Assembly: GCA_965238275.1 (NCBI GenBank)
Contig: OZ250186.1
Coordinates: 1,920,001 to 1,984,000 of the forward strand
From: Nitrosopumilus sp.
GTDB taxonomy: Archaea > Thermoproteota > Nitrososphaeria > Nitrososphaerales > Nitrosopumilaceae
Length of the DNA: 64,000 nt
Direction: 5' to 3'
The notes below the pieces were generated by a model that did no database searches, was not told the DNA's origin, and worked only from the letters and a program-made list of their open reading frames with translations. Position 1 is the first letter of the stretch. Each line of letters opens with the position of its first letter. Positions 1,982-64,000 of this stretch are shown piece by piece. The position numbers were made by a program, and so were the translations under genes.

Positions 1982-3335
1982 AACTCTGTTTCCTAATTAC
2001 GCTCGACACAGATACTCGTCTGTGCAATTCTGCCTACGTCGTCGTCTTGCCCCCTTCCCTTGCAGTCCTTGGGCCGGGCTTGTAGGCTTGCACGATCCTT
2101 GGCGTGCCGTACCCGTTGTCGATTGCAGTATCGATCATCTGGTTGTACAGCTGCACCTTTCCGTATATCTCGGCCTTGACGTTCTCCCACTTGCGCGCGC
2201 TTATGCACTCGCCCAACACCCGCTTGAACGTGGAAAATACAATCTCGACTGACCACCGGTCGTTGTACCCTGACTCCCTGCGCCACGCCTTCTGGAATTC
2301 CCTCTTTTGTTCGCGCGTGAGGCCTGCAAACTTGCGTTCTGCCGTCTTGTCCATGCAGTCCAGGTCCCCCAGCTGCCTGAATCCTGCCTCCTTGCGGGGC
2401 ATGCACCCGTTCGCCTTTCCGGCAAAGTCGATGCGGACGGGAATCAGCGGCTCGATTCCCTGCTCGTCGCAGTACCTGCGGATCTTCTGGGTGTCGTACG
2501 CGCCGTCGGCTGCCGCCTTGGTGCCTGCAGAAGTGTCTGAGTTTGGTGATTTTTTTGCATTTGCAAGGGCCTGCCCCACCAGTTCCTCAAACTGCGGAGA
2601 GTCCCCGCACTTGTCGTCGGTTATGGCCACGGCGTAGATCTTTTTGGTTTTGGCATCCACCCCGACGTGCAGCTTTATGAAGCCCCGCCTGGTCCCCCAC
2701 TTTTCTGTCATCCAGTCGCCGCGGTTTGTGGGCTTGAGTCCAGTGGAGTCGAAGGCAAACAGCTTGATCTCGGCCCGGGTGCCGCCGTCTGAGAACCACG
2801 CAGAAGCCGTGCCGCTACCATCATCATTGTCTGCAACAGTGCAGCCAAGCTTGGTCATCCTCTTCTGGAACGCCGAGTACGTGGGCGCGTTTTCCTTGCC
2901 GACTATCGTCTCTGCCAGACCCTGGAGCTGCCTGTACCTTATGCCGGTGGCGTTTTTGAACAGGGATGCTGCTGCAAAGCACGCGTTTGAAAATACGTAC
3001 GGGCGGCCTACCTTCCCGCAGTTTAGCTTCTCGACTCCCTGAGTCAGGATCTCCGGGCTTATCTGGAGCGTCCACAACTGGCCGCGGTCTATGTACCTGC
3101 GGTCATCGTACTGGAACCGGCGTTCTTTGGATTTGAAAGATTTTTTAGCCTCATGCGTGCCCGTTTTGTCTGGAGAGGATGTGTTTTCAGTCATGGCTGT
3201 TACCTGACTGCCTGCACACCTCTCTGATCAATACGGTTTTCTATTGAAGATGTTTGATATGATGTTCAAATTCAACTGATCTGGCCTAATTCTGAACCTG
3301 TTGGGTGTGACTGGCGATAATTAGGAAACAAAGTT
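1982..3335 (-). mobile_element. IS5-family (IS903-like) insertion sequence, copy A, 1354 bp
   Basis: 18-bp TIR AACT(C/T)TGTTTCCTAATTA; 8-bp TSD CATAGTAC at 1974-1981 and 3336-3343; near-identical to 26520..27873. Confidence 0.95.
2034..3194 (-). CDS. IS5-family DDE transposase
   Basis: FDSTGLK, KLHVGVD, ADGAYD, RWSVEIVFSTFK motifs. Confidence 0.93.
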   Translation of the reverse strand: MTENTSSPDKTGTHEAKKSFKSKERRFQYDDRRYIDRGQLWTLQISPEILTQGVEKLNCGKVGRPYVFSNACFAAASLFKNATGIRYRQLQGLAETIVGKENAPTYSAFQKRMTKLGCTVADNDDGSGTASAWFSDGGTRAEIKLFAFDSTGLKPTNRGDWMTEKWGTRRGFIKLHVGVDAKTKKIYAVAITDDKCGDSPQFEELVGQALANAKKSPNSDTSAGTKAAADGAYDTQKIRRYCDEQGIEPLIPVRIDFAGKANGCMPRKEAGFRQLGDLDCMDKTAERKFAGLTREQKREFQKAWRRESGYNDRWSVEIVFSTFKRVLGECISARKWENVKAEIYGKVQLYNQMIDTAIDNGYGTPRIVQAYKPGPRTAREGGKTTT

Positions 3336-3353
3336 CATAGTACGAGGTTGGTG

Positions 3354-3500
3354 AATACATGATAACCCCACCCACCCACCACATGTGGCGGGCTGACCCC
3401 TGATTACGCATGGTCACAAAGACCTCGTTGGTGAATGGGGCTATCCGAGCTGCTGTGTTACTGGACTCCGAGTCCTGATAGATGTATGCAGCTACCGGCC
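3354..3500 (+). ncRNA. putative bridge RNA (target- and donor-binding internal loops) of the IS110 element
   Basis: Loop 1: CCCC/GGGG outer stem, GGTC-ACAAA-GACC inner hairpin, strands ATTACGCA and GTTGGTG match the flanks. Loop 2: AGCTGC/GCAGCT outer stem, GGACT/AGTCC hairpin, ATAGATG matches donor end. Conserved second copy at 54617. Confidence 0.8.
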
Positions 3501-3520
3501 TGTCACACAAAAAAAGGGAG

Positions 3521-4597
3521 GTGAAAGAAATAGAAAAGAGTATTGGAATCGACATAGGAAAGAGAAAGTGCGTAGTGTGTATAATGAAACACAAGGGGAC
3601 AATTCTCGAAGAGTCATCGTACGACAACACGTCCCGGGATGCATTGGATTTTGCAGAATACGTAAAGGCCACATACGGCCAGTGCAAGGCAGTCTGCGAA
3701 TCCACCGGAAACCACTGGATAAAGACTGCAGACGCCTTTGAATCTGTCGGAGTCCCGCTGACTCTTGCCAATCCGTTCAAGGTCAAGGCAATCGCATGGG
3801 CCAAAATAAAAAACGACACCATAGACGCAAGAACGCTTGCCCACCTGCTGCGGGCCGACCTGGTTCCAGGCTGCCACATAGGTTCGGCCGAATCCCGGGG
3901 AATTAAGCAGGTCCTCAGGTACCAGATGACCCTAGTGCAGAACCGAACAAAAGTGATCAACTTTATGCACACGCTGACAGACAAATACGACATAAATCCA
4001 AAGAATGCAGGAGCCAGCGTCTGGAGACCAAAGGTCCTAAAGTACCTTGAAGAGGCAGACATGAAGAATTCCAGGGACAGGTTTGTTCTGGACGGCTGCA
4101 TATCGCAGATACGGTACTACAACGACGAGATAAAAAAGACCGAAGACGAGATCAAGCGCTACGTCCGAGACGCCCACGCCCCGAAGATACTGCTGAGTAT
4201 GACGGGGATGAACGTGTTTTCTGCGGCGCTGCTGGCAGCAGAGATCGACACTATCGAAAGGTTTGAGAACCCAAAAAAACTCGTATCCTGGGCAGGCATG
4301 TGCCCGACGCTTCACCAGTCAGGCGACACGTCATACCACGGCAGGATGAAAAAGGACTCGAATCGGAAGGTCAACTGGATCATGATCCAGTGCGCGCTTG
4401 TGGCAGTGTTCCATGACGCAAGGATGAAGGAATACTACACGCGCCTCCTGAAGAGGCACAAGCACCACATCGCCATAACGCACGTCGCAAACAAGATGCT
4501 GACGATCATCTGGCACATGCTGACAGAAGGCAACCTGTACGAGGACAGAAACGAGAAACTGTACCGCGCCAAGATCAAAGAAGTCATGAAGGCGTAG
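3521..4597 (+). CDS. IS110-family (DEDD) recombinase/transposase
   Basis: GIDIGK, VCESTG, KNDTIDARTLA and SWAGMCPTLHQSG motifs; the ORF-track ATG 3482 lies inside the RNA, so GTG 3521 (or ATA 3530 after GGAGGTGA) is a more plausible start. Confidence 0.93.
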   Translation: MKEIEKSIGIDIGKRKCVVCIMKHKGTILEESSYDNTSRDALDFAEYVKATYGQCKAVCESTGNHWIKTADAFESVGVPLTLANPFKVKAIAWAKIKNDTIDARTLAHLLRADLVPGCHIGSAESRGIKQVLRYQMTLVQNRTKVINFMHTLTDKYDINPKNAGASVWRPKVLKYLEEADMKNSRDRFVLDGCISQIRYYNDEIKKTEDEIKRYVRDAHAPKILLSMTGMNVFSAALLAAEIDTIERFENPKKLVSWAGMCPTLHQSGDTSYHGRMKKDSNRKVNWIMIQCALVAVFHDARMKEYYTRLLKRHKHHIAITHVANKMLTIIWHMLTEGNLYEDRNEKLYRAKIKEVMKA

Positions 4598-4978
4598 ACG
4601 CAGAACCGGCAATGTCAGTAGACGATGATGCCGGATCTAGCGGATGCTGTGCACGAATCATGGGAATGGCGGGTGTTTTTACATGAATACGGGGTGTTTT
4701 TACATGAATGCTGGGGGGCCAGCCCCCCAGACCCCCCGAAGGAGGATTATGCATGTCACGCCGCGGGGCAAAAGCCACATTTTCTGCGGATCCGGCAGGA
4801 TTCTACTCGCAGGTAACGCTTAAGAAGGCAAAAAACATACCCAAGGTGACAAGTTGGACGCAAAACCTGGATAAGTCCGGGGATGGGTTAACATAGATGC
4901 GTAATTCCGATATGTCCTAATCTGAATATTTCCCGCCGCATTCTCACGGGCGGGGTCAGATACGGACGGGTTGGATCA

Positions 4979-5645: not shown

Positions 5646-5895
5646 CGTGCATGGCACAAGCTGTCTGCGTGCGTATCCGTCGTGGTTTGGTGCCTTCTCA
5701 GATGACCAGATACGGAAAATTCTCGACTACCAGATTCGGTTTTTTGTACCTCGTGTACCTGGTAATCGCCTCTCGGAGCATGCGCAGGCTGGTGTACGGC
5801 ACGTCAAGCACTGCCCGCTTGAGATCCCCCGGTACGTCTCTATGGCGCTCAGGTTCGGGGTTGCAGTTAGCAAGAAGACTGTCTCCGGGCCGTCT
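5646..5895 (-). pseudogene. IS630-family 3' remnant
   Basis: DNA similar to 37711..37960 (CCAGATTCGGTTTTTTGTACCTCGTGTACCTGG). Confidence 0.8.
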
Positions 5896-5945
5896 ATTCT
5901 AACATAATACGTATTGTCACATCATTTGTAGCACATCAAATCTGG

Positions 5946-6106
5946 CCAGTGAAAATCCCCATTCACCGTCAAGACGGTATTTGACCATCCGCATACATTG
6001 GGCCACTCTTTCGCACGCCATCACAAGTGGCAAGTTCGTGTCGACTCTCAGGTCCAACAGGGTAAATGCCAAGATCACCGCTATAACGGCAACACATGGC
6101 GTCTTT
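5946..6106. repeat. ~160-bp dispersed repeat, copy 2
   Basis: Diverged direct copy of 611..772. Confidence 0.85.
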
Positions 6107-16783: not shown

Positions 16784-16851
16784 ACCTGTAGTTGGGATTT
16801 ATTTTCTTAAAAAGGATCTCAAAAAATTGCACGAACTTTCGCTTTTCACTA
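15338..16851 (-). mobile_element. non-autonomous TIR element with TA duplication carrying only tnpB
   Basis: 25-bp TIRs TAGCGGCGAGCGAAAGTTCGTGCAA / TAGTGAAAAGCGAAAGTTCGTGCAA (21/25), flanked by TA at 15336-37 and 16852-53 (target CCTAGG). Confidence 0.88.
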
Positions 16852-28784: not shown

Positions 28785-30381
28785 AGAAGATATGCGTAAT
28801 CCGCCCATTTCGCCAACTCGGTCATAAAAAACCGGAAAAATACGGCCTAAAACTACTCGTGTCTGGCATGTGGCAAGTCCGTTCACCCCAAAATCCAAAA
28901 TGACGTGCGCAGCCTTGCAGCACTTCATCGTGCCCTGAATTCTACTTGACCGGAGCTTGGGAGCAGGCCCTGTCCCAGTCTACTGACGTCTTCCACTGCC
29001 CCGGTGGTGGCGGGCCCTTTTCCATGCAGTCCCACAAAAGATTCAGGTTTACCAGCCCTGTGATCACGTTGAACTCCCTGTTGAACCCGGCTGCGTTGCC
29101 GTCGTACGGGTCGGTGAGGCGCGCGTAGCGCTTGAGCCTGCCTATCGTGTGCTCCACCAACACCCGGGTGGAGTTGATCCTGTGGTTGTGCTTTTTTTGC
29201 TCCGGCGTCAGCGGCGTGTCCCTGGTCTTCTTGTGCGGGATCTCCGGCGTGGTGCCGGGCAGGTGGTCTGCGATTCCCTGGTAGCCGCGGTCGACGAATG
29301 GGTGGCACCTGTCTGATTCTGGCAGGTCCGGATCGTGCATCGCCTTCTCCCACTTTCCAAACGGCATGGGGCGTTCCTTGAGCAGCGTGATGTCGCCGAC
29401 TGACCCGACGGTGCTTTTTGATATGCCGATCACCACCCCGTTCCGGTTGGTGTACACGTTGGTATTGTTGGTAAACTTTTTCTTCTTGCCGGAGTATTTC
29501 ATGCGCCGGACTGACTTTACGGACGGGCGCTGTATGGGGCAGTGCGTGCCGTCTATGAAGATCTCGCCCCCATCCGATCCGGGCACGATCTTCTTGAAAT
29601 CTTCCCTGGTCGGGGCAGCAGCTACCTCCTCGGATATGTTGTCTGCCGTCGGAAGTATTCCTGCCAGCATCGCGTCCATCACAGGAAAGTACCGGGACAC
29701 GGTGGACTGGTCTATCCCGAAGAACGCGGCAAGCGTTCCCTGCGTGATGTTTTCCTTTTTGTGCATCAGCGCCATGAGCAGCGCGTGCCTCAGGTGCAGC
29801 TTGCACCGGTTTCCGGGATCGGAGGCCCGGGATGCGTTATCGCAGAACAGCGGCATCTGGCCCGAATGCGTCAGAAACACCTTGGCCCGCTCCAGCATGT
29901 ACCGGAACTGTTCCCCGTCTGCCAGCGTGGCATGGCGGAGCTTGTCCCCGTCGCGTATTATGTCGTCTAGCACCTCTAGCAGATGCAGCGCGGGCCCCTT
30001 GCCGGGGTTCCAGCCATCGTCCCTGCTCTTCCACAGGCCGCGCTCAAGGCCCAGCTCCCTGTCTTTCTGCTCCAGCTTTTTGTCTTTCTGCTTTAGAATA
30101 TTTTTTAGGCTTTTGTTTTCCTGCTCCAGCTTTTTGTCTTTCTGCTCCAGCTTTTTGTCTTTCTGCTTTAGAATATTTTTTAGGCTTTTGTTTTCCTGCT
30201 CCAGCTTTTTGTCTTTCTGCTCCAGCTTTTTGTCTTTCTGCTTTAGAATATTTTTTAGTCTTTTGTTTTCCTGCTGCAACTTGTATATGATCTGATCAGG
30301 CGAGTCTGGCATTTGATGTGAGACACGATCGTGCCTGATCTAAATTTATCGATGTGGACAGGGGGATTACGCATATTCTCT
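28785..30381 (-). mobile_element. IS5-family element type C
   Basis: TIR AGA(AG/GA)ATATGCGTAATCC; 3-bp TSD AAT. Confidence 0.9.
28942..30312 (-). CDS. IS5-family DDE transposase with N-terminal heptad-repeat coiled coil
   Basis: FIDGTH, YSGKKK, VDRGYQG, RVLVEHTIGRLK; repeats LEQKDKK/LEQENKSLKNILKQKDKK. Confidence 0.9.
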   Translation of the reverse strand: MPDSPDQIIYKLQQENKRLKNILKQKDKKLEQKDKKLEQENKSLKNILKQKDKKLEQKDKKLEQENKSLKNILKQKDKKLEQKDRELGLERGLWKSRDDGWNPGKGPALHLLEVLDDIIRDGDKLRHATLADGEQFRYMLERAKVFLTHSGQMPLFCDNASRASDPGNRCKLHLRHALLMALMHKKENITQGTLAAFFGIDQSTVSRYFPVMDAMLAGILPTADNISEEVAAAPTREDFKKIVPGSDGGEIFIDGTHCPIQRPSVKSVRRMKYSGKKKKFTNNTNVYTNRNGVVIGISKSTVGSVGDITLLKERPMPFGKWEKAMHDPDLPESDRCHPFVDRGYQGIADHLPGTTPEIPHKKTRDTPLTPEQKKHNHRINSTRVLVEHTIGRLKRYARLTDPYDGNAAGFNREFNVITGLVNLNLLWDCMEKGPPPPGQWKTSVDWDRACSQAPVK

Positions 30382-50485: not shown

Positions 50486-50866
50486 GGGTGTTGGTGGAGC
50501 ACACGATAGGCAGACTCAAGCGCTACGCGCGCCTCACCGACCCGTACGACGGCAACGCAGCCGGGTTCAACAGGGAGTTCAACGTGATCACAGGACTGGT
50601 AAACCTGAATCTTTTGTGGGACTTTATGGAAAAGGGTCCGCCACCGCCAGGGCAGTGGAAGACGTCAGTAGACTGGGACAGGGCCTGCTCCCAGGCTCCG
50701 GTCAAGTAGAATTCAGGGCACGATGAAGTGCTGCAAGGCTGCGCATGCTGTTTTGGATTTTGAGGGGAACGGACTTGTCACATGCCCGACACGAGTAGTT
50801 TTAGGCCGTATTTTTCCGGTTTTTTATGGCAGGGTTGGCAAAATGGATGGATTACGCATATCTTCT
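50486..50866 (+). mobile_element. 3' fragment of IS5 type C
   Basis: Similar to reverse complement of 28785..29167, ends GGATTACGCATATCTTCT. Confidence 0.92.
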
Positions 50867-54616: not shown

Positions 54617-54763
54617 AATACATGATAACCCTGCCCACCCACCACATGTGGCGGGCTGACCCCTACAATTGCATGGTCACAAAGACCTGGTTCGTGAATG
54701 GGGCTATCCGAGCTGCTGTGTTACTGGACTGCGAGTCCTGATAGATGCATGCAGCTGCCGGCC
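54617..54763 (+). ncRNA. orphan IS110 left end / bridge RNA with different target guides
   Basis: Scaffold nearly identical to 3354..3500; target-loop strands changed to AATTGCA and GTTCGTG; no transposase follows. Confidence 0.8.
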
Positions 54764-54829
54764 CCGCATAATGATTAAACCGCTCAGAATATAACAAAAA
54801 CCGGTGCAAGGTTGAAGTTTGAGGAACGG

Positions 54830-63123: not shown

Positions 63124-64000
63124 AGAGAATATGCGTAATCCCCCTGTCCACATGGAACAGGAAAACGATAAATTTCTAATCAGGCAGCTGGAACAGAAAG
63201 ACAAAAAGCTGGAACGATCTGGAACAGAAAGACAAAAAGTCCTCAATCTAAAGCAACAAAAAGCTGGAACAGAAAGACAGGGAGTTGGGCCTTGAACGCG
63301 GCCTGTGGAAGAGCAGGAACGATCTGGAACCCTGCATGCACCAGAGGTGCTAGACGGCATAATACGCGACGGGGACAAGCTCATGTCACGCTGGCAGACG
63401 GGGAACAGTTCCGGTAGCTTGCATTCGGGCCAGATACCGCTGTTCCGCGATAACGCATCCCGGGTCTCCGAGCAAACTGCTGCTCCTAGCTTATCCGCAA
63501 AAAGGACAACCCCGCCCAAAGCCCGGTACAATGGATGCGATGACTGGCAGGAAAAGCTGCTGCCCCGACCAAGGAGGATTTCGATCGTGGATATTCATAG
63601 ACGGCACGCACTGCCCCGTGCATCTGTAAAGTCAGTCCGGCGCATGAAATACTCCGGCAGACGTGTCGCCGGGGTGGTGATGATCAAAAAGCATCAGTCG
63701 GCGACATCACGCTGCTCAAGGAACGCCCCAGGCAGCAGGAAAACAAAAGCCTAAAAAATATTCTCCACCCGGGTGTTGGTGGAGCACGCCAGAAAGACAA
63801 AAAGCTGGACGTGATCAGAAAGACAAAAAGCTGGGACGCAGGAAAACAAAAGGGCCGATAAAAAATATTCTAAAGCACGACTAAAGACAAAAAGCTGGAG
63901 CAGAAAGACAGGGAGCTGGGCCTTGAGCGCGGCCTGTGGAAGAGCAGGGACGATGGCTGGAACCCCGGCAAGGGGCCCGCGCTGCATCTGCTAGAGGTGC
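63124..64000 (+). pseudogene. scrambled IS5 type C sequence
   Basis: Begins with TIR AGAGAATATGCGTAATCC, then short deleted or shuffled pieces of 28942..30381. Confidence 0.8.

Follow-up and report, generated by a model that had tools for sequence, protein, structure and literature searches.

The 64-kb window analyzed here (64,000 nucleotides of contig OZ250186.1 from Nitrosopumilus sp., to which all coordinates refer unless given as genome positions) carries, at 3354–4897, a 1,544-bp element of the IS110 family of insertion sequences (ISs), whose ends are set by empty sites. From left to right on the + strand, the element comprises a 15-nt left subterminal inverted repeat, ATGATAACCCCACCC (3359–3373); a predicted bridge/seek-type non-coding RNA, with its core at 3388–3503; a Shine-Dalgarno-like sequence, GGGAGGTGA (3516–3524); a recombinase gene (3530–4597); and a 300-nt non-coding region (4598–4897) that includes the 15-nt right subterminal inverted repeat, GGGATGGGTTAACAT (4880–4894). 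We conclude with considerable confidence that this is an intact IS110-family IS in an archaeal chromosome, most likely mobile by RNA-guided recombination. The evidence is of sequence and computation: sequence relations, covariation in relatives, a covarying fold, the protein family, the catalytic residues, and a TG core. The host is archaeal, as a prediction made earlier from this locus (the original prediction) had supposed, since the archaeal models for small- and large-subunit (SSU and LSU) rRNA win the clan competition. The methanogen marker MCR alpha was not found in the host genome.

The recombinase gene is defined by Pfam, NCBIfam, and an alignment of catalytic residues, which together bear out the predicted family. 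Its product matches PF01548 (DEDD_Tnp_IS110) and PF02371 (Transposase_20), with E values of 9e-23 and 1.8e-22, both passing the curated cut-offs, and it scores 225.8 bits with the NCBIfam model NF033542 (“IS110 family RNA-guided transposase”), which has a cut-off of 140. The motifs IGIDIGK, CESTG, KNDTIDAR, and HQSGD align with residues D11, E60, D102, D105, and S241 of IS621, for which roles and numbering follow the account in PMC11208158. A search of the Protein Data Bank (PDB) returned the IS621 transposase (E 2.2e-11) and ISCro4 (E 8.6e-12), each aligned in two pieces, and in a pairwise comparison the IS5075 transposase aligns over 95% of the recombinase with 21.6% identity (E 3e-14).

The reading frame is open for 358–371 codons. 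The mechanically called open reading frame (ORF; 3482–4597) begins at an ATG at 3482, inside the second loop of the RNA described below, and a GTG at 3521 is likewise in frame; the start homologous to those of relatives is an ATA at 3530–3532, at a place where relatives have ATG or TTG, 5–9 nt after a conserved GGAGGTGA. In the closest relative (L017, genome G110), the homologous codon is also ATA and, by eye, has an in-frame TGA just upstream, which suggests a non-canonical start, so that ATA may be the start codon actually used. The Shine-Dalgarno-like sequence is kept in relatives, ∼12 nt past the closing stem of the RNA. Because the conserved GGAGGTGA sits ∼12 nt 3′ of the RNA, in relatives as well as here, the RNA may serve as the leader of the recombinase mRNA.

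The element interrupts a terminal inverted repeat of a DDE-type IS, here called ISB. On its left lie the target half GTTGG (3347–3351, +) and one copy of the TG core (3352–3353, +); on its right lie the second TG and the other target half, CGTAAT (4898–4905, +), the remainder of the ISB terminal repeat and the start of a repeat coding for the ISB DDE transposase. An empty ISB copy elsewhere in the genome reads GGTTGG-TG-CGTAATTC, uninterrupted, at its end at genome position 387080 (+), and its other end, at 388242 (−), carries the 13 bases GTTGG-TG-CGTAAT, inverted and also uninterrupted. Since the empty ISB ends hold GTTGG-TG-CGTAAT intact, the element was inserted within the terminal inverted repeat of another IS. 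TG is single in the empty sites and present at both junctions of the filled one, and the core is therefore TG, in agreement with the original prediction; a short core found once when the site is empty and at both junctions when it is filled is the insertion specificity of the IS110 family. The empty site at 16825 that had been brought forward in favor of TG does contain a single TG, but it belongs to the target of a second copy (at 54617) and not to that of the present element. The arms of the subterminal inverted repeat, located 5 and 3 nt from the element ends, are complementary at 12 of 15 bases (80%), and similar subterminal motifs lie beside both ends in relatives, with an AT-rich motif at the same place as in the left arm. 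The AT-rich part of that arm, ∼25 nt before the closing stem, may be an archaeal TATA box for the RNA.

Homologs with 30%–59% identity turned up in 25 of 201 genomes of the same family that were searched at the protein level, the host genome included and many with several copies, and the regions upstream of these relatives align with the left end of the element. From them we aligned 20 left-end sequences from 17 genomes, four from the host and one from each of 16 others, and derived a consensus fold with RNAalifold. The two internal loops proposed originally are predicted both by the single-sequence fold and by the consensus. In this model, a closing stem (3388–3392 with 3499–3503) joins two arms, each with an internal loop. 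Of the 425 cells in the five helices, 93.2% are paired, and 15 of 22 pairs show compensatory changes on both sides; none of 500 shuffles reached any of the five measures used. The structure was derived from the same alignment as the pair counts and is thus somewhat favored by them; the compensatory changes, and slid controls in which partners were displaced by 1–3 columns (32%–51% of cells paired), still set it clearly apart. No Rfam family was matched, and two sub-threshold matches on the minus strand were judged to be chance.

With 25 G:U cells in the alignment, compared with 6 A:C cells, folding can be assigned to the + strand, that of the gene. We rejected an RNA on the minus strand, for which 88.7% of cells would be paired, compared with 93.2% on the + strand, and for which the geometry of the guides is still not that of IS621. 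The same counts bear on the idea that the left-end motifs act as DNA, as sites of recombinase binding or DNA-DNA pairing whose likeness to the flanks and ends is incidental. That idea draws on the fact that the same strings are present in the DNA, but the stems covary with G:U pairs, which are possible only in a + strand transcript, and variation is confined to the loop strands that are unpaired, with pairing in the stems preserved. In experimentally studied relatives, moreover, the RNA is reported to be essential and to co-purify with the protein (PMC11187229, PMC11208160). We regard a purely DNA-based role as highly improbable.

The variable parts of the RNA are exactly these unpaired loop strands, and in the present element all four correspond to DNA at its boundaries, as expected for the IS110 family, whose non-coding RNAs carry loops able to pair with both strands of the target as well as of the joined ends. 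Every string quoted in the original prediction is present where it was placed, and the loop 1 matches are exact and longer than had been claimed (10 and 9 nt). The 5′ strand of loop 1 (3403–3411, +) is the right target guide, ATTACG-CA, the complement of TG plus CGTAAT: ATTACGCA at 3403–3410 is the reverse complement of TGCGTAAT at 4898–4905, and the T that follows pairs with the terminal A of the element. The full match is thus 9 nt, with ATTACGCAT at 3403–3411 perfectly complementary to 4897–4905, including the last element base. The 3′ strand (3427–3436, +) is the left target guide, GTTGG-TG, which equals the left flank plus core; the next three bases, AAT, are those with which the element begins. 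GTTGGTG occurs at 3347–3353 and 3427–3433, and the repeat really extends to the 10 nt of GTTGGTGAAT, present in the 64-kb window at 3347–3356 and 3427–3436 only, with 0.19 matches expected. In loop 2, the 5′ strand TGTGTT (3454–3459, +) is the guide for the left element end, complementary to AATACA with one G:T, and the 3′ strand ATAGA-TG (3478–3484, +) is the guide for the right element end and equals that end plus core, ATAGATG also lying at 4893–4899; both are as originally described.

ATTACGCAT occurs six times in the window, and TGCGTAAT is a recurring IS end motif in the host genome. Further ATGCGTAATCC strings lie at 28792–28800, 30366–30374, 50851–50859, and 63131–63139; of these, the strings at 28792 and 30366 form an inverted pair, ∼1.6 kb apart, that resembles the terminal repeats of a further IS type.

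The correspondences go far beyond chance, an argument that rests on comparative permutation tests rather than on the window count, since other ISs here also have TGCGTAAT-like end motifs. In each test, 20,000 shuffles were made, and loop strands were read from fixed alignment columns. A left flank is available for 19 of the 20 copies, the remaining copy lacking one at a contig end; over the 7 nt before TG, it agrees with the guide at 96 of 133 positions, against 37.4 with flanks assigned at random, and no shuffle scored as high. Right ends were located by an exact match to the donor-loop 7-mer downstream of the gene, found in 14 of 17 elements and each time just past a subterminal repeat (two elements had two matches, of which the first was used, and three had none, two of these with truncated genes). 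As the 7-mer alone set the ends, the test of the right flank is independent of the guide tested: in these 14 elements, the 6 nt after TG fit the complement of the loop 1 5′ strand at 61 of 84 positions, against 25.7 expected, and none of 20,000 shuffles did as well. At the left element end, the first 6 nt in the 20 copies likewise agree with the complement of the loop 2 5′ strand at 96 of 120 positions, against 66.9 (0/20,000). The AAT after the loop 1 core, which had been said to match donor sequence, does follow the left end in relatives, but weakly: the three bases agree with the first bases of the element at 41 of 60 positions, against 37.7, and 377 of 20,000 shuffles were as high. In two elements with differing left ends (ACT and GA), these bases change in step.

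An independent set of guides was obtained with a covariance model built from the 20-sequence alignment, a step that the original prediction had named as a check. Run on 151 sampled genomes of the class, the model matched 120 places in 20 genomes (15 of 80 in the same family and 4 of 29 in three other families), one of the matching genomes, G077, being left out. Forty of the 120 places were used (G110, 12 of 12; G006, 6 of 7; G041, 10 of 12; G065, 7 of 20; G248, 3 of 3; G261 and G283, 1 each), and dropping three from the first set and collapsing repeated guides per genome left 28 distinct combinations of genome and guide. Over the 5 nt next to the core, 95 of 140 positions agree with the left flank, against 40.9 expected, and none of 20,000 shuffles was as high; 17 of the 28 combinations agree at four or five positions, and 23 flanks end in TG. 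Guides and flanks thus covary in other copies, as predicted. Seven copies in G041 have one guide and near-identical flanks, which implies that the guide predates insertion and would be expected were the site chosen by the guide.

Several observations weigh against this interpretation. Eleven of the 28 independent combinations agree at three or fewer of five positions; these are mostly low-scoring, decayed-looking copies, and a well-scoring copy in G041 (L091) matches its flank at none of the five. Copies c3 and c5 match their own flanks at only 3 of 7 positions. For the right flank, agreement is poor in G071, G066, and G041, and in G176 it is obtained only with a 1-nt shift. A “handshake” between the donor loop and the right flank is unsupported, with 11 of 42 positions agreeing and 9.7 expected. 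Outside the clade, the RNA model gave best E values of 0.054 and 0.17 on the closest named relative, encoded on a Haloarcula plasmid (34% protein identity), and on the IS5075 locus, respectively. As the model finds nothing significant in the Haloarcula relative or near IS5075, the RNA family is so far confined to an archaeal clade.

The element might also be as described and yet now be a fossil, its matches of guide and flank recording a past insertion by a copy that no longer moves. No other copy in the 2.2-Mb single-contig genome is full-length, all being truncated, and two perfect target sites are unoccupied; moreover, ATA rather than ATG stands at the homologous start position. The 16-mer circle junction ACATAGATGAATACAT is absent from the assembly, with up to one mismatch allowed, and none of the contigs of four sequencing runs joins the element ends or spans an empty site, though contigs would rarely show a circle junction. 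On the other hand, the reading frame is open and all five catalytic residues are kept, the RNA scores best of all copies (154.1 bits), and both element ends still match the donor loop. The ATA shared with the closest relative, behind an in-frame stop, may itself be the start that is used. We consider loss of mobility possible but less likely than not.

For movement of the element, a mechanism can be proposed by analogy with the experiments on IS621, ISEc11, and ISEc21, from which we infer RNA production from ∼3386 on, protein binding, a circle joining ATAGA-TG-AATACA, and strand exchange at TG. Transcription of the left end in the direction of the recombinase gene would yield an RNA of ∼120–150 nt, probably the leader of that gene; this RNA would fold into a closing stem and two arms, with an internal loop in each. 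The loop 1 strands would jointly specify the target GTTGG-TG-CGTAAT, part of the terminal inverted repeat of another IS. The loop 2 strands would jointly specify the joined ends of the excised circle, the 5′ strand by pairing with AATACA at the left end and the 3′ strand by pairing with ATAGA-TG, which comprises the right end and the core. The DEDD/Ser recombinase, bound to the RNA, would exchange strands at the TG core.

RNA-guided recombination by IS110 and IS1111 elements was discovered in 2024 and, in the papers considered here, tested on bacterial elements only, and the published work offers two marks that separate the subgroups. Durrant et al. (PMC11208160) place the RNA in the left end in the IS110 group and in the right end in the IS1111 group. 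Siddiquee et al. 2024 (PMC11187229) describe the top-strand complement as first in IS1111 seekRNAs and second in the IS110 member ISEc21, and state that subterminal inverted repeats define IS1111. Judged by its sequence, the present layout mixes the subgroups. The top-strand complement lies 5′ of the bottom-strand complement in both loops, which is the IS1111 order as worded in PMC11187229, and the 15-nt subterminal repeats fall within the 7–17 bp of IS1111; the RNA, in contrast, is upstream of the gene in the left end, as in the IS110 group (IS621 type), and not downstream of the transposase gene as in IS1111, for which PMC11187229 notes exceptions. The combination of IS1111-like subterminal repeats with an upstream RNA had been suggested originally and is supported by the 15-nt repeats and the predicted RNA at 3388–3503; it is made firmer by the guide order, a point absent from that suggestion.

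The resemblance to IS621 (PDB 8wt6) is extensive. Both have a DEDD and Ser recombinase with five identical catalytic residues, although the protein match is weak (E 2.2e-11); a left-end RNA in which a target-binding loop precedes a donor-binding loop; four guide strands, three of them including the dinucleotide core; and extra guide-adjacent bases that match the other DNA partner, the handshake of Hiraizumi et al. (PMC11208158). In that description the extra bases adjoin the top-strand guides, whereas the candidates here are the U after CA, which pairs with the last A of the element, and also the AAU that follows the bottom-strand guide. The core is CT in IS621 and TG here, and a separate 5′ stem-loop in IS621 contrasts with a closing stem that joins both arms in the present RNA. 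The guide order within each loop is reversed relative to that given for IS621 in PMC11208160. Were this an ordinary IS621-type bridge-RNA element, the reversal would have to be an artefact of strand or orientation, and both the left-end location of the RNA, ahead of the gene, and the order of the loops would fit, as they match those of IS621 (PMC11208160). However, on either strand one core adjoins the inner stem and the other the outer stem, whereas in IS621 both face the inner stem; the G:U counts fix the + strand; and the 15-nt subterminal repeats differ from the 2–3 bp of the IS110 group (PMC11208160). We give this explanation very little credence and retain the mixed layout.

Among IS1111 seekRNA elements, ISEc11, ISKpn4, ISPa11, and IS4321/IS5075 resemble the present element in their subterminal inverted repeats, and IS4321/IS5075 also in favoring the terminal inverted repeats of other transposons. 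Partridge and Hall are said to have found in 2003 that IS4321 and IS5075 target Tn21-family repeats. IS1111 elements differ in that their RNA lies downstream, in the right end, whereas here it lies upstream, in the left end of an element with an archaeal host; the IS5075 locus, as noted above, is not recognized by our RNA model. Exceptions to the downstream position are listed in PMC11187229 for the IS1111-type or diverged ISMtsp17 (non-coding region upstream) and ISHvo10 and ISAcp5 (both sides). These elements, compared here by description only and listed in that passage with neither an RNA fold nor assigned guides, have an upstream non-coding region or long ones on both sides, as does the present one, with 134–176 nt upstream (depending on the start codon) and 300 nt downstream. 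Archaeal IS110 recombinases (662 of them reported in 10.1101/2024.06.21.599552) are already known, as are IS1111 members whose non-coding region is upstream or double (PMC11187229). Our literature search found no description of an archaeal bridge RNA; the supplementary tables of two 2024 papers, which give a predicted RNA position for each ISfinder element, may include relatives.

The result is a well-supported archaeal family with dozens of natural pairs of guide and target, a TG core, and a covarying fold outside Rfam. Guide order and RNA position, the traits that separate IS1111 from IS110, can be uncoupled, which bears on how the RNA moved between element ends in evolution. The family also provides a candidate programmable recombinase native to archaea, and its insertion into the terminal repeats of other ISs is relevant to the competition of mobile elements in IS-rich genomes.

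The host genome further holds one 5′-truncated copy and four copies of the left 120–150 nt alone. The second copy in the window (54617–54768, +) is an RNA gene alone, with an intact fold that scores 144.8 bits. Its donor-loop guides are the same as those of the element at 3354–4897, but its target guides differ (GTTCG-TG and the complement of TG-CAATTGT), and its left flank, GTTCGTG, equals its own guide. An empty paralog of its target, GTTCG-TG-CAATT, lies at 16825–16836 (−) within a repeat that has matches at 26 places, 18 nt in from the end of that repeat, and the string is uninterrupted at many further places in the genome. Such RNA-only left ends are common: the others in the host are at genome positions 1090162, 1092044, and 1201923, and in G110 there are 12 RNA matches and one truncated gene. 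The RNA at 54617 could act in trans or be mere debris. Stand-alone extra small-RNA genes (ssr9) are described for ISPpu9 of Pseudomonas putida (PMC12288879), a parallel for the four RNA-only copies of the host genome (G000), although ISPpu9 has a bacterial host and its RNA downstream of the gene. For three RNA-only copies (c2, c3, and c4), the predicted right end plus core plus right flank was not found near them, which marks them as solo left ends and not long cargo elements. We rejected an origin of the solo copies by recombination at a donor-like string in the RNA gene, since the breakpoints of c2–c5 are not at that string.

In a broader scenario, the archaeal clade would represent a third layout of bridge-RNA elements, in which IS1111-type loops and long subterminal repeats go with an RNA in the left end. 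A TATA box in the AT-rich part of the left subterminal repeat would put RNA and recombinase on one transcript, RNA-only copies with an intact fold and an unchanged donor loop, such as 54617–54768, would in trans direct the single intact recombinase and element into the ends of a different, high-copy IS, and the family would be a parasite of ISs with a small library of guides. Taken as a whole, we think this scenario unlikely.

Metagenome contigs (runs X1–X3) break at the target loop, at 3432, and continue with other guides in the same scaffold. These breaks suggest coexisting variants with other targets, a hint that we do not use as evidence.

In the downstream non-coding region (4598–4897), a tandem repeat of 21-nt units (GGGTGTTTTTACATGAAT...) at 4664–4705 resembles, by eye, the right ends of relatives, such as GGCGTTTTTACCATAGG-TG in G059, and may be a relic of an older right end; further tandem units resembling right ends lie at genome positions 1179025 and 1179044. 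Among relatives, the downstream non-coding region ranges from ∼60 to 450 nt, and it is therefore unlikely to be essential. The 5′ part of the RNA (3386–3400) is 87% complementary over 15 nt to 4715–4729, a G+C-rich hairpin region downstream of the gene, which may reflect chance or pairing of the RNA with the 3′ end of the mRNA.

The neighborhood contains other ISs. A distance of 17 nt separates the element from the end of a 1,355-bp IS at 1982–3336 that encodes a DDE transposase (PF01609, PF13737); the 13 full-length genome copies of this IS are near-identical (98%–100%), so it was very recently active. A second, distant IS110-family transposase, 27%–34% identical to the present one, occurs in three copies (genome positions 504144, 827317–827527, and 2149651), and the sequence immediately upstream of them shares 87% identity with the 210 nt at 5891–6100; in the window, this 210-nt segment stands alone, as a solo left end of the second IS110 type. 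At genome positions 828605 and 2148252, the second type abuts the high-copy repeat targeted by the 54617 copy, 5–7 bp from the insertion point of that copy, with homology to the repeat starting at GTTCGTGCAATT. Two distinct RNA-guided IS lineages thus seem to target the same IS end.

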